NCBI GenBank assembly: GCA_040218735.1
Contig: JAVJQW010000045.1
Span: 1-13,957 of the forward strand
Direction: 5' to 3'
Length of the DNA: 13,957 nt
Source of the DNA: Deltaproteobacteria bacterium
Lineage (GTDB): Bacteria; Myxococcota; Kuafuiibacteriia; Kuafuiibacteriales; Kuafuiibacteriaceae
The position numbers were made by a program, and so were the translations under genes. Each line of letters starts with the position of its first letter. Position 1 is the first letter of the stretch. Below the pieces are notes generated by a model. It saw only the letters and a list, made by a program, of their open reading frames with translations. It was not told the origin of the DNA and searched no databases. Of the stretch, positions 1,527 to 10,240 are shown piece by piece.

Positions 1527-1579
1527 GGGCGCGTCCCGCGCCCACTCGCCTGCGAAGCCTGGGGCCCGCTCCGTGGGCC
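1527..1579 (-). other. pair of GGA-loop hairpins 3' of VR1 (candidate DGR target-recognition cruciforms)
   Basis: Coding strand GGCCCAC-GGA-GCGGGCC (1579-1563, one mismatch) and GGGCGCG-GGA-CGCGCCC (1543-1527). Confidence 0.65.
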
Positions 1580-2466
1580 TACTGCCCTTCCAGAGCTCGA
1601 CCTCGGGCAAGCCGGAAGCCGACGACCCCGCCGCGATCGTCGCGGAGGTCCGCGCGGCGGAACGCCGCGCGGACGTACCTCGCGCCGTCGTACCACGAGC
1701 CGCCACGCAAGACGCGGGACGGGCGCTCCCCGGGCGCGAGGTACGGATCATGCTGCGCGTCCGTTGTGTACTCGCGATGCCAACCGTCGGCGCACCACTC
1801 GTCGACGTTCCCCAGCATGTCGTGCAGCCCGAACGCGTTGCGACGCCGCGTCTTCACCCTCCGGGTGCCCGCGCGCTCGTGCGGATACTGCTTCTCCGGC
1901 CAGCTCGACGAATCGTGCGCCTCCTCGAGATCGTAGCCTTCGCCCGAGTTTCCGCCGTACCACGCAAACAGGTCCAGCATCGGCGCGTTGTTGTTGCCCA
2001 GCAGCTCGATGGGTCCGTCGTACGGCGGCGCCTGCATGTTCGCGCGGCACGCGTACTCCCACTCCGCCTCCGTCGGCAGCCGCAGCCCAGGCACGAGCTC
2101 GGACGCCTTCGCCAGGAACGCGTTCGCGTCGTCCCACGAGACGTTCTCGACTGGCCGCCGGGGGTCGACGAAGTGGCTCGGGTTCGAACCCATCACCGCC
2201 TCCCACAATGCCTGCGTGCACGGCGTCTGCCCGAGCCAGAATCCCCGCGAGATCGTGACCGAGTGCTGCGGCCCTTCGTTGTCGCGCCGCACCGGCTCGC
2301 CGTCCGCCGAGCCCATCGTGAACGTCCCGGGCGGGATCCACCGCAGGATGTGCTCCACGCCGCCGATCTCGAACCCAACCCAAACGCCCTGCCGATCCTC
2401 GCCCCACGAAGAGGCCCACTCAGGCGGGATGCCGTCGTCGAGCGGGTTGAGGCGATCTTCGTTCAC
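1579..2466 (-). CDS. stand-alone FGE-sulfatase (formylglycine-generating-enzyme-like, CLec-fold) domain protein; DGR target 1
   Basis: Motifs RWIPPGTFTMGS, PVENVSWDDA, LRLPTEAEWEYACRA, NAFGLHDMLGNVDEWC, RGGSW...GFRLAR. Likely start GTG 2466 (GGGGTG upstream). The ORF-track start at 2736 lies inside the TR. Confidence 0.88.
   Translation of the reverse strand: MNEDRLNPLDDGIPPEWASSWGEDRQGVWVGFEIGGVEHILRWIPPGTFTMGSADGEPVRRDNEGPQHSVTISRGFWLGQTPCTQALWEAVMGSNPSHFVDPRRPVENVSWDDANAFLAKASELVPGLRLPTEAEWEYACRANMQAPPYDGPIELLGNNNAPMLDLFAWYGGNSGEGYDLEEAHDSSSWPEKQYPHERAGTRRVKTRRRNAFGLHDMLGNVDEWCADGWHREYTTDAQHDPYLAPGERPSRVLRGGSWYDGARYVRAAFRRADLRDDRGGVVGFRLARGRALEGQ
1602..1727 (-). repeat. DGR variable repeat VR1
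   Basis: 126 bp, ungapped against TR 2628-2753; 18 mismatches, all at TR adenines (coding strand). Encodes PSRVLRGGSWYDGARYVRAAFRRADLRDDRGGVVGFRLAR. Confidence 0.95.
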
Positions 2467-2627
2467 GCCGGCACCCCAACGTCGAGATGGCCGGTGCGCT
2501 CTCGCCGCGGCATCCACACGCGGGTACGCACGCACCAGCCTCCCACTTCCTTTTCGCTCCGCCGCACGATGCGACGAAGACAGGATGAAGATCGGGTCGA
2601 GCCCGGGTCGCCTGACCCACGCTCGCG
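2467..2627 (-). ncRNA. structured spacer 3' of TR (putative DGR RNA priming/structural region)
   Basis: Fold-back hairpin 2595-2628 and long stem GGCUGGUGCG/CGCACCGGCC (2540-2531 with 2498-2489) with inner CCGCG/CGCGG. The U-G wobble works only on the minus-strand transcript. Confidence 0.55.
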
Positions 2628-2753
2628 CTCGGGCAAGCCGGAAGCCGACGTTCTCGTTGCGATTGTCGCGGTGGTTCGCGTTGCGGTACGCCGCGCGGAC
2701 GTTCCTCGCGTTGTCGTTCCACGAGCCGCCACGCATGACGCGGTTCGGGCGCT
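2628..2753 (-). repeat. DGR template repeat (TR)
   Basis: Lies just 3' of the RT stop. Reads KRPNRVMRGGSWNDNARNVRAAYRNANHRDNRNENVGFRLAR with 8 AAC + 1 AAT codons and 27 adenines. Differs from the three VRs almost only at adenines. 3' end GAGCGCGAGC (IMH*) versus GAGGTCGAGC (IMH) in all VRs. Confidence 0.95.
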
Positions 2754-2800
2754 TCGGACCTTCACCCCGGCGGGATTGTCGAGCCTGCGCCGCCCCACGT

Positions 2801-3805
2801 CTACGCCTCCGCCGTCGGCGCGCGCTCGAGGTCGGCGCGCCGAAAGCCGCTGGCCTCCGCGTGGGCGGTGATGGCGAACGCCGCGTCGTAGGCGCGCTGC
2901 AGCGCGAGCGCGTCGAGCACTCCTTCGCGGTAGAGCGCCTCCCACGCCCTTCGGGACCGTGCGTAGCGGCGCATGCGCCGGCGCGACAGCTTCAGCACGC
3001 CGGGATAGATACGAAAGCCGAGGAACGAGAGCCCCGCGTGGCTCCGCTGCACGAAGCCTGGCCCCTTCGGGCGGAGATCGAGCACCTCCTGCAGGAGCAT
3101 CGCCGCCATCGTCCGAACGCGCTCCGCCTCCGCGCGCGTCTGCGTCCACGCGACCACGTCGTCCATGTAGCGGACGTAGCCTCGCACGCGGCCGTCCTCG
3201 GCGAGGCACCGGTCGAGCGGCGCGAGGTAGAAGTTCGCGAAGCTCTGCGACGTCAGCGACCCGATCGGGAGCCCGCGCCCCGCACCGAAGCCCCGGACGA
3301 TGCGGCGCACCAGTGCCCGCACTTCGCGGTCTTTCAGCTTGCGATCCAACGCCGTGCACAACCGGTCGTGGGGGATGCTCGCGAAGTACTTCGCGACATC
3401 GAGCTTCACGTACCAGGGCCAGCGCCGCGTGTGCACCTGCGCGCGCTGGACCGCGGCGAGGCTCCCCTTCCCGACGCGGCACGCGAACGTGTCGTCGACG
3501 AGGGCGCGGTCGAGCGTCGGTCCGATCGCGGCCATCAAGGCGTGGTGCACCACGCGGTCCTCGAACACCGGCGCGTGGATGACGCGCGGCTTCGGATCGC
3601 GAATGGAGAACCGTCGATACACATGGCTCGGGGCCGTTCCTTGGCGGAGGCCGTCGCCGAGCGCGGCCAGGTTGTCGTACGGCCGTCCGCGGAAGCGCTC
3701 CACGTCCTCGCGGCCCGTCTTGCCGCGCGCGGCGCGATGAAAGGCCGAGGCGAGCGCGCCGAGGTTCGCGACGTCGTCGAGCGTCGCGCGGCAGCGCTGT
3801 ACCAT
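2801..3805 (-). CDS. DGR reverse transcriptase (~334 aa)
   Basis: KPRVIHAPVFEDRVVHHAL, KLDVAKYFASIPH, GLPIGSLTSQSFANFYL (DGR-type SQ motif), YVRYMDD catalytic motif, FLGFRI. Start ATG 3805 overlaps the hrdc stop (TGATG). No maturase or endonuclease extension. Confidence 0.95.
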   Translation of the reverse strand: MVQRCRATLDDVANLGALASAFHRAARGKTGREDVERFRGRPYDNLAALGDGLRQGTAPSHVYRRFSIRDPKPRVIHAPVFEDRVVHHALMAAIGPTLDRALVDDTFACRVGKGSLAAVQRAQVHTRRWPWYVKLDVAKYFASIPHDRLCTALDRKLKDREVRALVRRIVRGFGAGRGLPIGSLTSQSFANFYLAPLDRCLAEDGRVRGYVRYMDDVVAWTQTRAEAERVRTMAAMLLQEVLDLRPKGPGFVQRSHAGLSFLGFRIYPGVLKLSRRRMRRYARSRRAWEALYREGVLDALALQRAYDAAFAITAHAEASGFRRADLERAPTAEA

Positions 3806-4281
3806 CAGGACACCACCGTCGGGAGGAGGAGCTCGCGCAGCAGCCCGAGGAACGCGGCGCCGTACTTGTCGACACGCCGTTCGCTCACGCCCGAGATGCG
3901 TCCGAGCGCCGCCTTCGAGGTCATGCGGTCCGTCACCATCTGCGCGAGCTGCTCGTTCGTGAACACGGAGTAGAGAGGCACGCCCGCTTCTGCGGCCTTG
4001 CGCTTTCGCAGCTCGCGAAGTCGCGCGAACACCGCGAAGTCCGACTCCGAAAGCACCTCGCGATAGTCCACCTTCGGTGACCGCGACGTCGTCGTCGTCG
4101 TCGTTTCCTCCGCCCTCGCGGCATCGGCGTAGGTGACACAGATGGCCCACGTCGCCGCGCCGTGCTCCGTCACGAGGTGACGGTCGACCGCCAACACGTT
4201 GCGCTGCGCGAGGAACTTGTTGAGGGCTTCCCAGCCCGGACGTGGGTCGAGGACGGGGATAGTGAAGAATTCGAGTTTCAT
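3805..4281 (-). CDS. HRDC-domain DGR accessory protein
   Basis: C-terminal FARLRELRKRKAAEAGVPLYSVFTNEQLAQM...ALGRISGVSERRVDKYGAAFL is an HRDC domain. Translationally coupled to the RT; hrdc is a known DGR accessory gene class. Confidence 0.88.
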   Translation of the reverse strand: MKLEFFTIPVLDPRPGWEALNKFLAQRNVLAVDRHLVTEHGAATWAICVTYADAARAEETTTTTTSRSPKVDYREVLSESDFAVFARLRELRKRKAAEAGVPLYSVFTNEQLAQMVTDRMTSKAALGRISGVSERRVDKYGAAFLGLLRELLLPTVVS

Positions 4282-4316: not shown

Positions 4317-4469
4317 CGCCGGCGCGTCCCGCGCCGGCGCTCGGGACGGCTCCGCCGTCGGTCCTCCGAGCGACCCAGGAGCGTGTCCATGCATCGCCTC
4401 AGCCACGACTGTTCTTGCGTAACCCCTCCGGGCTCGGCGGCTCCGCCACGGGGACTCCCCCTCCGGGGG
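4317..4469 (-). other. cluster of GGA-loop hairpins 3' of VR2
   Basis: Coding strand CCCCC-GGA-GGGGG (4469-4457), GTGGC-GGA-GCCGC (4449-4437), GACGGC-GGA-GCCGTC (4359-4345) and CGCCGGCGCG-GGA-CGCGCCGGCG (4339-4317, 10-bp stem). Confidence 0.65.
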
Positions 4470-7400
4470 CTCGACCTCGGGCAAGCCGGAACCCGACGCC
4501 CGCGTGGCGAAAGTCGCGGTGGGAGGCGCGGCGGTACGCCGCGCGGACGTACCGCGCGCTGCCGACCCACGAGCCGCCACGCGAGACGCGGCTCGGGCGC
4601 TCCCCTGGCTCCGCCAGGGGGTCAGTGACAGGAGCGTCCGGGTACGGATCAGGCCTGCCATCGGCTCCGTCAGCGCACCACTCCCAGATATTCCCCAGCA
4701 TGTCGTATAGGCCCCACGGGTTCGGGATCTTGGTTCGCACGGCACGCGTCCCAGCCTTCGGGGTCGGGTACTGCATTTCGCCCCAGTCCGAGGTGTCGTG
4801 CCCCTCCTCGAGGTCGTAGCCCTGGCCGCTGTTGCCTCCGTACAAAGCGATGGCGTCGAGCGCCGGAGCGTTGCGATCGCCGAGAATCTCGATCGGCCCG
4901 CCGTAAGTCGCCGCCGTGGTCCCTGCGCGGCACGCATACTCCCACTCCGCCTCGGTCGGCAGCCGCAGCGCCAGCTCGACGTGCTGTCGGTTCAGCGCCG
5001 CCATGAACGCCACCGCATCGTCCCACGACACGTTCTCCACCGGCCGGTCGCGGGTTCGAAAGCGACTCGGGTTGGCCTCCTTGCCGAGCACCGCCTCGTA
5101 GAGCGCCTGCGTGCACGGCGTCTCCGCCAGCCAGTAACCCTGGGTCAGCGTGACTTGGTGCTGCTTCTCTCGATTGAAGCGCCCCGGTTCGTCTTCGGGC
5201 GAACCCATCATGAAGCGGCCCGGCGGAATCCAACGCATCCGGATCACCTCCGGCACCACCCGCGTCTCCACCTCGACGTCCGCGAACAGTCCGAACCGAT
5301 CGCGCCCGACTCCCGAAGCCCACTCGGGTCGTTCGAAGGGTTCAAGATCGAGCGACACGAGATCGGTCTCGAGCCGAACCGGCGCGCGCAGATCGATCGG
5401 GATGCGCGTGTCGGCGTCCAGCCGAACGCTGCGGATCACGTGCGGCTCGGTCTCGCGCGTCCCGCGCGGCCCGGCCGAGCTGGAGCTGGAAGCCGGCTCC
5501 GCCGGCCCCGGACTGGACTGGGCTCGACCTCGGGCAAGCCGGAAGCCGACGTGCTCGAGGCGATCGTCGCGGTGGAACGCGTAGCGGAACGCCGCGCGGA
5601 CGCTCCTCGCGAAGTCGAGCCACGAGCCGCCACGCATGACGCGGTACGGGCGCTCCCCTGGCTCCGCCAGGGGGTCCGTGACGGGGCCGTCGGGGTACGG
5701 ATCAGGCTCGCCCCAGCCCTTCGCCCCGTCGGCGCACCACTCGCGGACGTTCCCGAGCATGTCGTGCAGGCCCCATGCGTTGGGCTCGCGGGTCTTGACG
5801 TCGTGGGTCTCGCCCTCGCTGTTCTCGGCGTACCAAGCGACTGCACCCAACGGGCCATAGGGCGCCTCAGCGGAGCCGGCGCGACACGCGCGCTCCCACT
5901 GCGCCTCGGTGGGTAGAACGAGGTCGAGCCCCGGGACCTGCGCGTTCAGCGTCGCCAGGAAGACTTGCACGTCGTCGAAGCTCACTTGCTCGACGGGTCG
6001 CTGAGGCCCCTTGAAGCCGGACGGCTCGTCGTTCATCACCGCCGACCAAAGCGCCTGCGTGCACGGCGTCTCGGCCAACCAATACCCCTCGCTCAACGTC
6101 ACCTCGTGCTGTGTCTCGCCTTCGTGGCGCTCCTCCTCGTCCTCGGGTGAACCCATCAGGAACGTCCCGCCCGGGATCCACCGCATCACCTGCTCAACGC
6201 CCGCGACCTCGAACGATGCCCAGCGGCCGAACTGGTCGTTGCCCCCTCGGCTCGCCCACGCTGGCGCGAGCCGCTCCACGCGGAGCTTCGAACGCGTCGC
6301 CCGAAGGTCGATCGGCGAGTCCAGCACCGAGCCCAGCGACGTCAGGAACCCACCGCGCACATAGAGTCGGTGCGTCGCGCTCGCCGGCACGCCGGAGACC
6401 CGTCGCCCGTCGACGAGGTGCTGGAGGCGCCGGACCCATCGGCCCATGGCCTCGTCCGCCTCGAAGTCGATCTCGCCCTTGCGCTCGTCGAGGTGCTCGT
6501 ACCACGCCAGGGCCCGGTCTCTGTCGGTAGCGCCAAAGGTGCCGGTCTCCAGCGCCCGCGTGAGCTTCTCCAGATGGAGGTGCGCGGCGCGGCGCGCGTC
6601 CTCGGGGACGAGGTGGGCCTGGCCCATCGCGAGCAGGCCGAGGTACGTCTCGACCCAGACCTGCGCTGCGGTCGCGGACGCCGCCAAACGCTCGACGGCG
6701 GCGCGGCGGACGCCTACATCTCGCGCGAGGAAGCCAGCTCGAAGCGCGGCACGCGCCTTGTTGCCGATGCGCGCGCGCCCGGTGATGGTGTGGCGGACAC
6801 GTGTGTCGTGCCAAGCGGCGCACTCCACCGCTGTGCTCCGTTCGCTCGTCGCCGCTCGGAGTCCGACTGCGTCGAAGACCACCGCGAAGGACATCAGCTC
6901 CAGAACGGCCGTGACCTCCTCGTGCGATACTGTCTCTACATCCGAGACCGACCGCCAAGGTGGCGGCACGCGACGCCGACCGAGCGATAGCATCAGCGTA
7001 GGTGTTCGATGCCTCGCGAGAGACCGACCCAACGCGGACCACGGAGACCGTCGCCTTGGCTCGGCGAGCGCCAAGAAGCGGTCGGGCGAACTCGCGACCG
7101 CCGCGACCGCCTGAGCCGTGAGCCCACACGGACCGTCCGGCAGGTACTCGACGACAACGCGCTCATGACCAAACGCACGAACGAGGCCGTCGAGGATCAC
7201 TTCGTAGTCCGCCGCGAAGGGGCGCGCGTCCGAGGTGTCGTCGACGAGCACCCAAACACGACCCTCGAGGTGCCGGACACGCTCGCGCGGAATTGGGTCG
7301 ATCGGGCGGCACGTGGCGTAGCGATCGACGAGCTCAATCGTGTCCACGGCTCCCCACGAAGCGTCCCCCGTGAGCAGACGACGAAGCTTCGACGCCCAAT

Positions 7401-7734
7401 CCTCCCACCGCACGCGTGGAGGCGGCACCGCGGGCGGGGGAGACGGGGCATGAAGCTCACGGGGAGTCATCGTCGGACCATTCCGACCGGCGAGCGGTTG
7501 AGAGGGATCCTCGAACTCGACGCGGCGAACGACACGTACGAAGGTCGCAGACGGCAACCGCTCCGACTCTGGCTCGAGCCCGGACGATCGGAGGTGCTCC
7601 ACACGAGAATTCGGAGCCGGGAGGACGACGCGGGGGTGATGGCTCATCCCGAGCATCGGCGCCACCCGGATGACCTCGTCGCGGTCCATCCGCACGAGCA
7701 TCCGGAGGAGGTCCGCTCGCCCGATCGTCTTCAC
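4399..7734 (-). CDS. ternary-system vWA component: degenerate vWA-like N-terminus, helical region, two tandem FGE-sulfatase (CLec) domains, each with a DGR VR (1111 aa)
   Basis: GTG start overlaps the MoxR stop (GTGA). GAVDTIELVDRYA...PIPRER then VWVLVDDTSDARPF resembles the vWA strand-1/MIDAS region in degenerate form. Two complete FGE domains at about 6265-5520 and 5335-4470. Confidence 0.85.
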   Translation of the reverse strand: MKTIGRADLLRMLVRMDRDEVIRVAPMLGMSHHPRVVLPAPNSRVEHLRSSGLEPESERLPSATFVRVVRRVEFEDPSQPLAGRNGPTMTPRELHAPSPPPAVPPPRVRWEDWASKLRRLLTGDASWGAVDTIELVDRYATCRPIDPIPRERVRHLEGRVWVLVDDTSDARPFAADYEVILDGLVRAFGHERVVVEYLPDGPCGLTAQAVAAVASSPDRFLALAEPRRRSPWSALGRSLARHRTPTLMLSLGRRRVPPPWRSVSDVETVSHEEVTAVLELMSFAVVFDAVGLRAATSERSTAVECAAWHDTRVRHTITGRARIGNKARAALRAGFLARDVGVRRAAVERLAASATAAQVWVETYLGLLAMGQAHLVPEDARRAAHLHLEKLTRALETGTFGATDRDRALAWYEHLDERKGEIDFEADEAMGRWVRRLQHLVDGRRVSGVPASATHRLYVRGGFLTSLGSVLDSPIDLRATRSKLRVERLAPAWASRGGNDQFGRWASFEVAGVEQVMRWIPGGTFLMGSPEDEEERHEGETQHEVTLSEGYWLAETPCTQALWSAVMNDEPSGFKGPQRPVEQVSFDDVQVFLATLNAQVPGLDLVLPTEAQWERACRAGSAEAPYGPLGAVAWYAENSEGETHDVKTREPNAWGLHDMLGNVREWCADGAKGWGEPDPYPDGPVTDPLAEPGERPYRVMRGGSWLDFARSVRAAFRYAFHRDDRLEHVGFRLARGRAQSSPGPAEPASSSSSAGPRGTRETEPHVIRSVRLDADTRIPIDLRAPVRLETDLVSLDLEPFERPEWASGVGRDRFGLFADVEVETRVVPEVIRMRWIPPGRFMMGSPEDEPGRFNREKQHQVTLTQGYWLAETPCTQALYEAVLGKEANPSRFRTRDRPVENVSWDDAVAFMAALNRQHVELALRLPTEAEWEYACRAGTTAATYGGPIEILGDRNAPALDAIALYGGNSGQGYDLEEGHDTSDWGEMQYPTPKAGTRAVRTKIPNPWGLYDMLGNIWEWCADGADGRPDPYPDAPVTDPLAEPGERPSRVSRGGSWVGSARYVRAAYRRASHRDFRHAGVGFRLARGRAPGGGVPVAEPPSPEGLRKNSRG
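4476..4601 (-). repeat. DGR variable repeat VR2 (C-terminal FGE domain)
   Basis: 126 bp versus TR: 21 mismatches, 18 at TR adenines and 3 not (4492, 4525, 4583). Encodes PSRVSRGGSWVGSARYVRAAYRRASHRDFRHAGVGFRLAR. Confidence 0.92.
5454..5506 (-). other. pair of GGA-loop hairpins 3' of VR3, inside the coding interdomain linker
   Basis: GCCGGC-GGA-GCCGGC (5506-5492) and CGCGCG-GGA-CGCGCG (5468-5454). Same order and similar spacing as after VR1. Confidence 0.65.
5529..5654 (-). repeat. DGR variable repeat VR3 (internal FGE domain)
   Basis: 126 bp versus TR: 14 mismatches, all at TR adenines. Encodes PYRVMRGGSWLDFARSVRAAFRYAFHRDDRLEHVGFRLAR. Confidence 0.95.
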
Positions 7735-8762
7735 GTCTCGTGTTTCGCGTTCTTATCGAAGAAGAACTCGCCAACGTCGTCGAGGAGCTCCTCCCGCGCC
7801 TTCGACACGCTGACGCCCCGCCTCTTCGCCTCGACGGGACCCAGGACGACGAGCGTGCGAAGGAGGTCGATGAGCTCGGCTTGTCCAGGAGCCGCAAGCC
7901 CGAGATCCGACAAACGCTTGCGGTCCGTGGCGAGCTGCTTCGCCGCCGTGCGTACGAGGTCGTCGCTGAGGATCGCCGCGTCGGGGAAGTGCGCGCGCCC
8001 CCTGTCGAACAGCCAATCCTCGTAGCCGTCGCCCTTCCCCATTCGGTGCACGACGCAGCGACGGAGGAACGCCTTGGGCAAGGTCCGCTCTTCGTTCGTG
8101 GTAATGACGACGAGCGGCGGGACGCCGGGCTGGGCCACCTCTTCGAAGCCCAGCGCATCGAAGCGACGTTCACCCAATGCTTCGAGCAAGCCGTTGGGGA
8201 CGGACTCCTCGGCCTTATCGATCTCGTCGATCAGGACCACGACGCCGTCGCGCTTCGCGTCGAACGCGTCCGGGTGCCAGGGTCGTTCGAGCGTCTCCAG
8301 TCGCTCGTCACCCGCGCTCGGCGGCTCCCCGAAGCGCGCACGAAAGCGCTGCTCCGTAGCTCCTTGCCAGTCGAACGCCCACCACAGCACCCCCGGCTCC
8401 ACGAAGTAGCGCTCCTCGAGCAACACCTCGTCCTTGAATTTCGGCGTCGCCTGAAGCTGCGCCCTCGCCAGGCGTCGAACGGCGTCATACGTGTACAGGA
8501 GGTCCCGCGACTCCGTCCGGGCGTCGACGACCTTCGAGACGAAGGCGCGACCCGTGTGCACCGCGGCAGCGCGGGCGAGCTGGCTCTTGCCGACGCCCGG
8601 GAGTCCACGGAGCAGGAGTGGTCTCGAGGCTGCGAGCGCGGCGTTGACGGCGCGGATGTCCTGCGCGTCGAAGACGTGTGGACACGCTTCGCGCCCGCCA
8701 ATGGGAGGCAGCGCATAGCGCTCATCGGGCTCGACCTCGAGCAAGCGGGGGGTATCGGTCAC
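7731..8762 (-). CDS. MoxR-family AAA+ ATPase
   Basis: Walker A GLPGVGKS, Walker B VVLIDEIDKA, sensor-1/Arg finger VITTNEERTLPKAFLRRC, and YTYDAVRRLARAQ insert. GTGA overlaps at both ends. Confidence 0.93.
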   Translation of the reverse strand: MTDTPRLLEVEPDERYALPPIGGREACPHVFDAQDIRAVNAALAASRPLLLRGLPGVGKSQLARAAAVHTGRAFVSKVVDARTESRDLLYTYDAVRRLARAQLQATPKFKDEVLLEERYFVEPGVLWWAFDWQGATEQRFRARFGEPPSAGDERLETLERPWHPDAFDAKRDGVVVLIDEIDKAEESVPNGLLEALGERRFDALGFEEVAQPGVPPLVVITTNEERTLPKAFLRRCVVHRMGKGDGYEDWLFDRGRAHFPDAAILSDDLVRTAAKQLATDRKRLSDLGLAAPGQAELIDLLRTLVVLGPVEAKRRGVSVSKAREELLDDVGEFFFDKNAKHET

Positions 8763-10240
8763 GGTGGGGCCTCGTCGAACAAGGGCGCGATCGTCTCGAG
8801 CATATGCGCCTCGATCGTCAGGATCACGTCATCCTCGGAAGCACGCAAGAACAGGACGTCCAGATCGATCTCAGCGGCTTCGAGTTCGGCTTTGAAGTCC
8901 TCTGCGAACTGCGCATCGACCCGGTCTTCACGAAAAACGACGAGGTATCGGCGCTCTCCACGCTTCGCCTGCTTCTTGGTCGCGCGCGCCATGGCCCTCT
9001 TGAGAATTCCCTGATGCTGGCTAGCTCGATACTGCTTTCGCTGCGCATAGCTCGCGACCGTCTGCGTGACCGCGGCGATCACTTCCTTCGCCTGCGCACC
9101 GCCGGTCATCGCCGTGACGTCCACCTCGAGGCGATGGACAGAGTCGAGCTCGTTCTTGTCCCGTACGAAGTCGGCAGGGCGACCCATGGCAGCGGCCGCC
9201 ATGCACTCCGCGATGGCATTCGAGTAGCCACTACATACGAGAATCGGAGATCCCGCGACGAGCGATTCGGTCACCTCTTCGCCTCGATCTCGCAACCCCA
9301 CAACCCCTGGCAGGAGCGCGCATACCCACCGCGCAAGAACAGCTCGACCTCCGGCTGGTGGGTTCTCGGCGACCTCCTCCACGGTCTCGAGGAGGTCATC
9401 CGGCGATTGCGACTCGCAGGCCTTCCCGAGGTCGACGGGGGTCGTCCTGTCGTCGAGACCGAACGTCTGGCACAGGCGGAGGCGAAGCCACGCGGCCTCC
9501 GCGCCGGAGAGGGCCGCAGCGATCTCGTTGCGCTGCTCCTCGCGGATGCGCGCGTACCGCTCACGACGGGCGTGGCCCAGCTCTTCGGCGGACAGCTCCG
9601 TCGGCGCACCGGGCGCTTCGGAGTCCAGCGCACCGGCACCCGCCAGGAATGGGTGACTTGGCACGGCCCCTCGCAGCGTTCCGACAACGTGGGCGATCGG
9701 AATGATCCAACCCGACTTCGGCTCGGACCTCTCGCGGGAGACGGTCAATCCGGCGAGGTAGAAAACGCCAGCTTCCTCGATGAACACCGGGCCGCCGCTG
9801 AACCCCTTCGCCGTCTCGGCTGCGAGCTGCCAGACCTGCCGTTTCGGGTCGTAGCTGGACAGCTGTGTCGGGTGGGACTCGTAGGATCTGGTCGCTGTTC
9901 CGCGATACCCATGGAGTTGAACGGAGTCTCCGAACGACAAGCCTCGATCCCAGCAGGTCGCCGACAAGCCAAACCTCAGCGGCGCCGCGAGCTCGAGGAA
10001 CACGAAGTCATCTCGCTCGGGAGGCTCATCCATCGGCATTTCGGGCAGGACACGTTGGACTGGGCGCCAGAAGTCAGGCTGGTCGCCGCCCTGAACGTGT
10101 ACGGTCAGGTCTTTCGGATCGCGGCCGACGATGCCGTGCGCGCAGGTCAGAGCGAGGCCGTCCGTGAGGAACACGGCGGAGAGGATCGGTGTGCCGTTCG
10201 CCCGGACTCGGCCGACGAGCAAGCTAGGCCTCTTCGTCAC
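8759..10240 (-). CDS. trypsin-like serine peptidase fused to an uncharacterised C-terminal region (VMAP-position component of a MoxR/vWA ternary system)
   Basis: Catalytic triad motifs LTCAHG, DDFVFLEL and KGFSGGPVF in the first ~190 aa. About 280 aa of helical/alpha-beta C-terminus. Sits directly upstream of MoxR. Confidence 0.8.
   Translation of the reverse strand: MTKRPSLLVGRVRANGTPILSAVFLTDGLALTCAHGIVGRDPKDLTVHVQGGDQPDFWRPVQRVLPEMPMDEPPERDDFVFLELAAPLRFGLSATCWDRGLSFGDSVQLHGYRGTATRSYESHPTQLSSYDPKRQVWQLAAETAKGFSGGPVFIEEAGVFYLAGLTVSRERSEPKSGWIIPIAHVVGTLRGAVPSHPFLAGAGALDSEAPGAPTELSAEELGHARRERYARIREEQRNEIAAALSGAEAAWLRLRLCQTFGLDDRTTPVDLGKACESQSPDDLLETVEEVAENPPAGGRAVLARWVCALLPGVVGLRDRGEEVTESLVAGSPILVCSGYSNAIAECMAAAAMGRPADFVRDKNELDSVHRLEVDVTAMTGGAQAKEVIAAVTQTVASYAQRKQYRASQHQGILKRAMARATKKQAKRGERRYLVVFREDRVDAQFAEDFKAELEAAEIDLDVLFLRASEDDVILTIEAHMLETIAPLFDEAPP

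Follow-up and report, generated by a model that had tools for sequence, protein, structure and literature searches.

The DGR locus

The window, by which we mean the whole stretch of DNA analysed here, is 13,957 nt long and makes up an entire contig (JAVJQW010000045.1) of assembly GCA_040218735.1, from a Deltaproteobacteria bacterium (lineage Myxococcota/Kuafuiibacteriia/Kuafuiibacteriales/Kuafuiibacteriaceae) whose genome measures 11.6 Mb with 69% G+C. This myxobacterial genome carries in the window a diversity-generating retroelement (DGR) of the HRDC type, with the order HRDC gene, reverse transcriptase (RT), template repeat (TR). Our subject is the spacer that follows TR, where we think it probable that positions 2628–2595 of the minus strand act as a combined priming and guide module of the DGR RNA. 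A short arm of this spacer folds back on the 3′ end of TR, and the same arm is complementary to the initiation of mutagenic homing (IMH) sites at the ends of the variable repeats (VRs). Along the minus strand lie a target gene of 1111 codons, the HRDC gene, the RT gene, TR, the spacer and a second target gene, as follows.

4399–7734, minus strand: target of 1111 aa with two FGE-sulfatase (C-type-lectin-fold) domains (Pfam E = 3.1e-80, in two stretches), holding VR3 and VR2
3805–4281, minus strand: HRDC-domain accessory gene, 158 aa (Pfam HRDC, E = 2.9e-18), its stop overlapping the RT start
2801–3805, minus strand: DGR reverse transcriptase, 334 aa, ATG at 3805 (Pfam RVT_1, E = 1.9e-11)
2628–2756, minus strand: TR, from its alignment with the three VRs
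1579–2466, minus strand: target gene 1, one FGE-sulfatase domain (Pfam E = 8.8e-49), carrying VR1
about 1602–1730, minus strand: VR1, aligned to TR, in target gene 1
about 4476–4604, minus strand: VR2, aligned to TR, near the C-terminus of the 1111-aa target
about 5529–5657, minus strand: VR3, aligned to TR, internal in the 1111-aa target

The window thus holds a DGR-type RT, TR/VR pairs with an adenine bias, an HRDC gene beside the RT and lectin-fold targets with an IMH and its TR counterpart, IMH*. Mismatches between TR and the VRs fall on TR adenines at 7 of 7 positions in VR1 (a 66-nt cluster), 18 of 21 in VR2 and 14 of 14 in VR3. The RT translation contains LPIGSLTSQ and YMDD, which we take to be DGR hallmarks. 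Its closest relatives among named records are from Myxococcota, and at E ≤ 1e-20 we counted 1550 homologous proteins after scoring 8000 candidates. Target gene 1 probably starts at the GTG at 2466; its open frame continues upstream across the spacer and TR.

A spacer arm complementary to the IMH

TR and the three VRs of the window have a common end, ...GGCTTGCCCGAG. The last base that TR shares with the VRs is G2628, and A2629 is probably the first base to be templated. Past this junction TR continues with CGCGAGCGT (IMH*), VR2 and VR3 with GTCGAGCCC, and VR1 with GTCGAGCTC (IMH). The features at and beyond the junction are these.

2619–2627, minus strand: IMH*, the TR counterpart of the IMH (CGCGAGCGU), with C2627 as the conserved mismatch opposite the arm
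2605–2618, minus strand: inner stem-loop of hairpin 1, GGGUC-AGGC-GACCC, in the minimum-free-energy fold
2595–2604, minus strand: returning arm, candidate cis-primer and guide, GGGCTCGACC (GGGCUCGACC), with C2595 as putative priming nucleotide
1593–1602, minus strand: IMH of VR1, 9/10 to the arm, with a G-T pair expected at the one remaining position
4467–4476, minus strand: IMH of VR2, 10/10 to the arm
5520–5529, minus strand: IMH of VR3, 10/10 to the arm

From 2633 to 2595 the minus strand reads CCCGAG-CG-CGAGC-GT-GGGTC-AGGC-GACCC-GG-GCTCG-AC-C, and the predicted partner of G2628 is C2595. The 43-nt stretch 2632–2590 has this hairpin as its minimum-free-energy fold (−23.1 kcal/mol; mean of the shuffles −16.3; z = −2.39; 5 of 200 shuffles equal it), and a 101-nt fold retains it. 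The reverse complement of the arm, GGTCGAGCCC, is identical at 10 of 10 positions to minus-strand 4476–4467 in VR2 and 5529–5520 in VR3, that is, to the last common G and the nine IMH bases after it. VR1 (1602–1593, GGTCGAGCTC) has an internal T and agrees at 9 of 10, and TR itself (2628–2619, GCGCGAGCGT) at only 6 of 10. If cDNA were joined to the arm at C2595, the RNA–cDNA product would, as one strand, be exactly colinear with the bottom strands of the VRs and not with that of TR. An earlier note, written from the letters of this DNA, had described the hairpin, the complementarity to the three IMHs and this chimera; every statement it made about the minus-strand sequence proved correct when 2633–2595 was re-read, its hairpin is the optimal fold and better than the shuffle mean, and the colinearity follows from the letters.

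The 10-mer occurs 242 times in the 11.6-Mb genome (both strands), and its exact copies in the window number five, of which three belong to the DGR. When the 134-nt spacer was searched against each 32-nt VR junction, a complement as long appeared for VR2 and VR3 in 1–2% of 200 dinucleotide shuffles and for VR1 in 8%; against the TR junction the best score was 6, equalled by about 82% of 200 such shuffles. Since the 10-mer is not very rare in GC-rich DNA, the single case is suggestive, and comparison must decide.

The match could be a coincidence, the VRs sharing the 10-mer as duplicated domains or through GC-rich codon words. The two further copies in the window outside the DGR speak for this, as do the eight window matches with at most one mismatch, against 4.25 expected (16 of 200 shuffles reach eight), and the clearly paralogous flanks of VR3 and of a fourth VR described below. 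Only about 6e-4 hits are expected, however, per 60 oriented positions, and the relation recurs at equal register in relatives of differing sequence and in Bordetella BPP-1. We therefore hold coincidence or paralogy to be very improbable.

The 16-mer that ends TR has five copies in the genome: TR, VR1–VR3 and one on contig C52. The last belongs to VR4 (about 43,090–43,237, plus strand), which is unlinked to the window, lies inside another FGE-sulfatase gene some 43 kb into a 278-kb contig, and has 22 of its 31 mismatches on TR adenines. Its IMH is complementary to the arm at 10 of 10 positions, which adds another exact match to those the earlier note had listed. All four VR copies of the 16-mer thus run on into IMH bases that match the arm, and the TR copy does not.

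The earlier note had also cautioned that TCGA-rich words are common here, citing a recurrence at 2778–2785. The last eight bases of the arm (GGCTCGAC) do recur upstream of TR (minus strand 2785–2778). The recurrence is real but not conserved: none of 21 relatives repeats its own arm end at that place, so it is probably due to chance.

The arm follows its own IMH in related elements

Relatives were found by searching metagenome and viral contigs with an alignment of 41 RTs. We used 80 of 584 confirmed relatives from metagenomes (597 stretches) and 80 of 574 from viral contigs (597 stretches), and added two loci from the genome collection (RT-only scan) and three from a phylum sample of 401 genomes, three of which had an RT match, the present genome counted. 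By tblastn, 81 of 168 records have an HRDC homologue directly upstream of the RT, a count that includes the window and L001, which are the same DNA; the near relatives accordingly form an HRDC-RT-TR clade. A classifier based on k-mer diagonals and adenine bias recovered TR/VR-like pairs in 112 of the 168. The main test set comprised 50 non-redundant TRs from loci with an RT at least 37.5% identical and a VR in the same locus. From these 50, the rows of two alignments, A3 (27 sequences) and A4 (29 sequences), were chosen by eye; some rows of A4 are shifted by one column, and the figures drawn from it are lower for that reason. As the relatives are not independent of one another, p-values are nominal throughout. 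The start of the spacer has to sit near the junction, for a start farther downstream cuts off the arms of short hairpins (L003).

The twelve nearest loci, compared by eye, share one layout: the TR end, IMH*, a hairpin of variable sequence, the arm and a block of conserved bases. Every one of these arms is the reverse complement of its own element's VR flank. Arms of differing sequence match their own IMH at 10/10 positions in L003, 11/11 in L013 (AT-rich), 11/11 in L020, 14/14 in L040 and 10/10 in L090, and L053 does so at 18 of 21 bases in two blocks; the match to the element's own TR is poor in all six. L053 (3289–3340, plus strand) has no self-complementary hairpin between IMH* and the arm, and its blocks of 10 and 8 bases are complementary to the flank of the VR junction.

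With the register left free, the best spacer complement beat 200 dinucleotide shuffles (p ≤ 0.05) for the VR junction in 12 of the 50 TRs and for the TR junction in one. The VR score exceeded the TR score in 33 and equalled it in 7. Spacers scored a mean of 7.06 against their own IMH and 5.25 against the IMHs of other elements, and 0 of 5000 permutations reached the own value. The best arm began exactly at the last common base in 16 of 50 TRs, which is the mode, and in 13 of these its 3′ end lay 30–37 nt past the junction. The 10/10 match in the window is at the long end of the range. Among 59 non-redundant distant DGRs (RT less than 37.5% identical), p ≤ 0.05 was obtained for the VR in 6 and for TR in 2, a signal that is at most weak, BPP-1-like arms beginning TGACCAC excepted.

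Two further comparisons fixed the register in other ways. With the register set only on positions at which TR and VR agree (31 TRs), the arm at the differing positions complements the VR in 57.2 weighted cells, TR in 28.2 and neither in 38.6. A VR-blind register from MAFFT anchors could be placed in 41 of the 50 TRs, 9 being gapped at an anchor. We counted, among the six positions nearest the junction, the cells at which TR and VR differ: in this register the arm complements the VR in 52 of them and TR in 16, and in 22 it complements neither. An unbroken VR run of at least five was found in 21 TRs, with a TR run of 1 in all 21 and with 19 distinct arm 10-mers. A register that maximises the TR match (TR 192, VR 80, neither 69) was set aside, for it favours TR by the very way in which it is chosen and the argument would be circular. 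Of 29 TR-VR pairs, 21 have the reverse complement of the IMH 7-mer in the 120 nt that follow TR, and none has it in those that follow the VR; by its sequence, then, the arm belongs to TR alone and not to the VRs.

These relations would also arise if the IMH were written and not read, the RNA arm joined to the cDNA being copied into the target during second-strand synthesis or repair. Such copying predicts the identical colinearity and the same co-variation of arm and IMH, and it would explain the first 8–10 bases common to all four VRs of the genome. But the VRs of one element match their arm to differing extents, some with internal mismatches: each of the two L004 VRs departs from the arm at a position of its own, L088 and L008 share only 6–8 bases, and VR1 of the window has its internal T. 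The 2004 work of Doulatov and the 2008 work of Guo reportedly bear on the requirement of BPP-1 for a pre-existing IMH and on its transfer boundary. In the account of Naorem 2017 (PMC5703328), BPP-1 homing needs an IMH already in place, and the boundary of sequence transfer is found upstream of the first base to be copied. An IMH produced by copying is, in our judgement, quite unlikely.

A conserved mismatch between TR and the arm

At the position directly past the junction the VRs carry G, T or A, faced by C, A or T in the arm; TR and VR differ here in 31 TRs, and in 23 of them the arm complements the VR. In the fold-back of TR on its own arm, the column of C2627 forms no standard pair with its arm partner in any of the 29 A4 sequences, and the flanking pairs are kept in 26 and 29 of the 29. 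When the G:C and T:A states of the VR:arm pair are placed on the RT tree (20 loci), three changes are needed, at least two of them forced by well-supported branches. Arm and target thus changed together more than once, with TR staying C. Within A3, A2629, C2625, G2598 and C2595 are invariant, and G2628, C2627, A2597 and G2593 nearly so.

An alignment of spacers and IMHs across related DGRs, which the earlier note had named as its check, therefore yields both complementarity and covariation. As far as these alignments tell, its view of the arm as an element of targeting and directionality gains support, the arm appearing to complement the IMH of its own VR in preference to IMH* and to change together with that IMH.

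A predicted two-helix architecture of the DGR RNA

Bases directly 5′ of TR can pair with spacer bases just past the arm, and a second hairpin follows.

2757–2768, minus strand: 5′ strand (GGGGUGAAGGUC) of the TR-closing duplex, directly 5′ of TR, from RNAduplex
2582–2593, minus strand: 3′ strand (GAUCUUCAUCCU) of the TR-closing duplex, beginning one nucleotide (C2594) past the putative priming C
2557–2579, minus strand: hairpin 2, a 10-bp stem including G-U with a UCG loop, read from the sequence; the 101-nt fold predicts only a 7-bp version

The closing duplex 2768–2757:2593–2582, as given by RNAduplex, has 12 bp including three G-U pairs (p about 0.005 against 200 shuffles). A search for upstream:downstream helices without G-U pairs had missed it in most loci, the window included, and RNAduplex then found it. 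A helix of this kind is present in 21 of 21 relatives, 1–2 nt after the putative priming C, with p ≤ 0.05 in 10 of them. In most of the 21 relatives folded, a nested stem-loop occupies the position of the inner stem of hairpin 1.

Both helices show compensating changes in A4. In the closing helix 8 of 12 pairs have changes on both sides; in the arm fold-back 7 of 10 do, the priming pair being G:C in 26 of 29 sequences and the fourth pair standard in 29 of 29. Taken together, 63.8% of cells are paired against 54.6% in shuffled alignments (0 of 500 reach this), and the covariation score is 0.297 against 0.163 (0 of 500), with slid registers giving at most 0.186. RNAalifold on the 27-sequence MAFFT alignment predicted no pairs, the hairpins being of variable length and out of register. 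From the arm fold-back and the covarying closing duplex we conclude that TR is closed by two neighbouring helices. For the self-priming that the earlier note had read into the hairpin, the fold-back in relatives and the covarying second helix thus offer comparative support, on a modelled structure.

L019 and L044 have VRs in which the A preceding the junction has become G, so that this A would be copied, at least in these two elements. The change to G fits copying together with mutagenesis.

Past hairpin 2 lie an A-rich stretch (2556–2546) and a 3′ tail that runs to about 2521. Relatives have, at the corresponding position, a hairpin, GAAA...AAAAG and then a motif like CCGGYGUGCUGGUAG. Because hairpin 2 and the tail are conserved, the DGR RNA probably extends some 110 nt beyond TR. 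The Rfam 15 covariance models gave no match at E ≤ 1 on either strand of 2300–2900.

A GC-rich stem-loop between the RT/TR unit and the next gene might otherwise be taken for an intrinsic terminator, or for a hairpin that regulates target gene 1 from its leader. No U-run follows it, though, the next bases being CCGAUCUUCAUCC, and the bases past the hairpin are part of the conserved helix and of a conserved tail of about 100 nt. We consider either function extremely improbable.

Hairpins downstream of the VRs

GC-rich inverted repeats, one or two after each VR and most of them with a GGA loop, lie on the minus strand at 1579–1563 and 1543–1527 (VR1), 4469–4457 (VR2), and 5506–5492 and 5468–5454 (VR3). 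Three GGA-loop hairpins follow VR4. Perfect hairpins of 5 bp or more, with GGA within the loop or next to it, occur in 21 of 66 distinct VR flanks of the relatives, against 7 of 66 shuffles; among the 38 best VR-flank hairpins GGA is the most frequent loop (14 cases). The RNA hairpin after IMH* in TR also frequently has a YGGA-type loop. Since the loops of the VR-flank DNA and of the TR RNA are alike, one protein may read both.

In another explanation the spacer hairpin has only a structural or priming role, and the IMH is recognised by other means, for example by the RT and HRDC proteins together with the DNA hairpins downstream of the VRs. The excess of GGA-loop hairpins agrees with this, as does the proximal core of the IMH, whose conservation in many relatives is what one would expect of a site read by a protein; the arm at its distal positions is complementary to TR more often than to the VR; and papers of 2025–26, in the text available, still call unresolved how the cDNA finds the VR and why flow from TR to VR is one-way. 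Pairing that served TR only should, however, favour TR, yet the first position is unpaired in every A4 fold-back of TR, and the arm complements the VR there in most TRs where the two differ. Arms of differing sequence moreover fit their own IMH over 10–14 nt, and the own-versus-other permutation never reached the own value. We judge recognition by protein instead of by the arm to be unlikely.

Proposed mechanism

Our model builds on the fold and its conservation, the sequence relations and the covariation described above. A transcript from about 2770 to about 2520 would fold so that TR is closed by the 2768–2757:2593–2582 helix and by the arm (2604–2595) lying on IMH* (2628–2619). In this fold C2595 would face G2628, where the copied part of the template ends on its 3′ side. 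From the layout of the template:primer duplex and the 'cPRT Stop' of BPP-1 (below), C2595 is likely to be the nucleotide that primes; the RT, with the HRDC protein, would begin the cDNA there and copy A2629 first. That C2595 primes, and the chemistry by which it would be linked to the cDNA, we infer. The arm–cDNA product, colinear with the VRs, could then, in the cell, pair through its arm with the IMH beside a VR and so anchor the cDNA at the 3′ boundary of the target. TR itself would be shielded, C2627 never pairing with the arm, and this would give TR-to-VR directionality.

Stated generally, the IMH would be not a protein site but the plain Watson-Crick complement of an RNA primer arm joined to the cDNA, in HRDC-type and probably in all DGRs, with TR shielded by one conserved mismatch at the first base past the junction. 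Judging by the sequences compared, we hold the chances of this wider proposition to be about even. If it is true, the choice of target should be programmable by changing arm and IMH together, and unlinked targets should be predictable genome-wide as the TR end followed by the reverse complement of the arm, the rule that located VR4 on another contig. The result gives exact and cheap predictions for tests with compensatory mutations, and it may offer a handle for retargeting DGR-based mutagenesis tools.

Several observations weigh against this interpretation of 2628–2595. The signal is not universal: a blind-register run of at least five is not reached in 29 of the 50 TRs, among which are register errors (L013, L019, L028, L035, L040 and L078, where the free search found 7–14 nt), wrong TR ends and others that show nothing. 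The TR score exceeds the VR score in 10 of 50 TRs. At positions +6 and +7 the arm complements TR in 10–11 cells and the VR in 4–5, from which it follows that the VR-specific guide is often only about 6–7 nt long and that the remainder closes the TR hairpin. In L010 and in VR1 of L004 the first position does not match the arm. The junction-proximal core G-G/T-T-C-A-G, conserved in many relatives, may just as well be a motif read by a protein or a state that was inherited. The 101-nt fold is in overall stability no better than shuffles (z = −0.03, 89 of 200). Next to G2628:C2595, the TR fold-back of the window contains two mismatches; as four pairs are required there in BPP-1, the geometry of priming may differ. 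The inferred priming base is an invariant C here and A in BPP-1, and the inferred first template base an invariant A here and G in BPP-1. To these come the choice of alignment rows by eye and the nominal p-values.

Neighbouring genes and sequence variants

The 1111-aa target has an N-terminal region of about 500 aa without a Pfam match, and one of its two diversified lectin-fold domains is internal. Upstream of it lie a gene for an AAA_5 (MoxR-like) ATPase (8762–7731, minus strand) and a gene at 10240–8759 (minus strand) with a weak trypsin-like match, whose 23.1 bits stay below the cut-off of 27.6. The gene set at 4399–10240 (minus strand) resembles the DGR-diversified conflict systems of multicellular bacteria (PMC7159879 and PMC10907252). 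A second RT-like open frame of the genome (L002; contig C20, 287,295–288,035, plus strand) shows 29% identity to the RT of the window over residues 34–267 (E = 9.9e-11).

Assembled contigs of four public runs (two samples) are broken at the repeats of this locus and mix variants, and they show neither a usable RNA–cDNA joint nor clean VR variation. A TR-internal variant at positions 2644, 2664 and 2713–2715 is present in contigs of three runs (one other sample), mixed with the version of the window.

Comparison with known systems

Group II introns choose their targets by EBS-IBS guide pairing; the intron RNA reverse-splices into the target, and its cDNA is primed by target DNA. The proposed module is alike in that the RNA of a retroelement would pick its DNA target by short Watson-Crick pairing beside the site where the cDNA is installed. 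It differs in that the cDNA would be made first, primed by the element's own RNA. In retrons, the msr-msd RNA primes from the 2′-OH of a branching G in a fold-back. There too the primer of reverse transcription is the folded RNA of the element, which keeps its covalent link to the cDNA, but a retron has no target repeat and no homing, and its inverted repeats flank the template without mirroring a target.

HRDC-type DGRs were described as 'Architecture C' (Wu et al. 2018, PMC5758913) and in Treponema denticola (PMC4891356), with HRDC beside the RT, C-type-lectin-fold targets and IMH/IMH* at the repeat ends, as in the window. Those surveys list 14 HRDC-containing DGRs among 372; in their text IMH and IMH* figure only as imperfect repeats, and a spacer arm or an RNA structure goes unmentioned. 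A full-text literature search, which did not extend to supplements and figures, returned no comparative test of arm and IMH, no description of an HRDC-type DGR RNA and no conserved TR mismatch.

For BPP-1, cDNA primed from the spacer is established (Naorem 2017, PMC5703328; Handa 2018, PMC6182149). Naorem 2017 states in its Discussion that pairing of the RNA primer is more extensive with the IMH of the VR than with IMH*, which probably explains directionality. The IMH-matching role, which the earlier note had put forward as its own idea, was accordingly already in print, and the arm-IMH relation is in this respect a rediscovery. In the BPP-1 record, the reverse complement of spacer (Sp) 47–56 is TGACCACCTA, VR 118–127 is TGACCACCTG and TR 118–127 is TGCCCATCAC; the arm thus has nine contiguous bases against the IMH and 6/10 against IMH*, a preference like that of the window (10/10 and 6/10). 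The idea is therefore published for BPP-1, and an Avd-less architecture, clade-wide covariation and the conserved TR mismatch were not found in the literature searched, supplements aside. On the sequence comparisons, our results would lend the RNA-guide idea raised in 2017 comparative support that is independent, clade-wide, drawn from a large Avd-less clade and the first of its kind.

Structurally, the template:primer duplex of BPP-1 lies 2 nt from the avd:Sp duplex ('cPRT Stop'), and the four pairs nearest the active site are required, according to bioRxiv 10.1101/2023.10.23.563531; the conservation analysis of Handa et al. given there addressed DGRs with Avd homologues. In both elements a spacer arm folds onto the TR 3′ end beside the first copied base, and a second helix joins bases 5′ of TR to the spacer 1–2 nt past the priming nucleotide, the 2593–2582 strand of the window being the apparent counterpart of Sp 59–70 in the cPRT Stop. 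The differences are as distinct. The accessory protein is HRDC in the window and Avd in BPP-1; no Avd-like gene was seen in the window, small open reading frames not having been scanned for one. TR lies downstream of the RT here and between avd and brt in BPP-1. The arm of the window ends 33 nt past the junction, after a short hairpin, whereas the priming base of BPP-1, Sp 56, is 73 nt past the first copied base. The pair beside the priming pair is a conserved mismatch here and a required pair in BPP-1. On the modelled structure, the two-helix priming architecture seen by cryo-EM in BPP-1 would thus be present also in DGRs with an HRDC protein, and the element of the window would work like the BPP-1 RNA yet stand outside the Avd-dependent kind.

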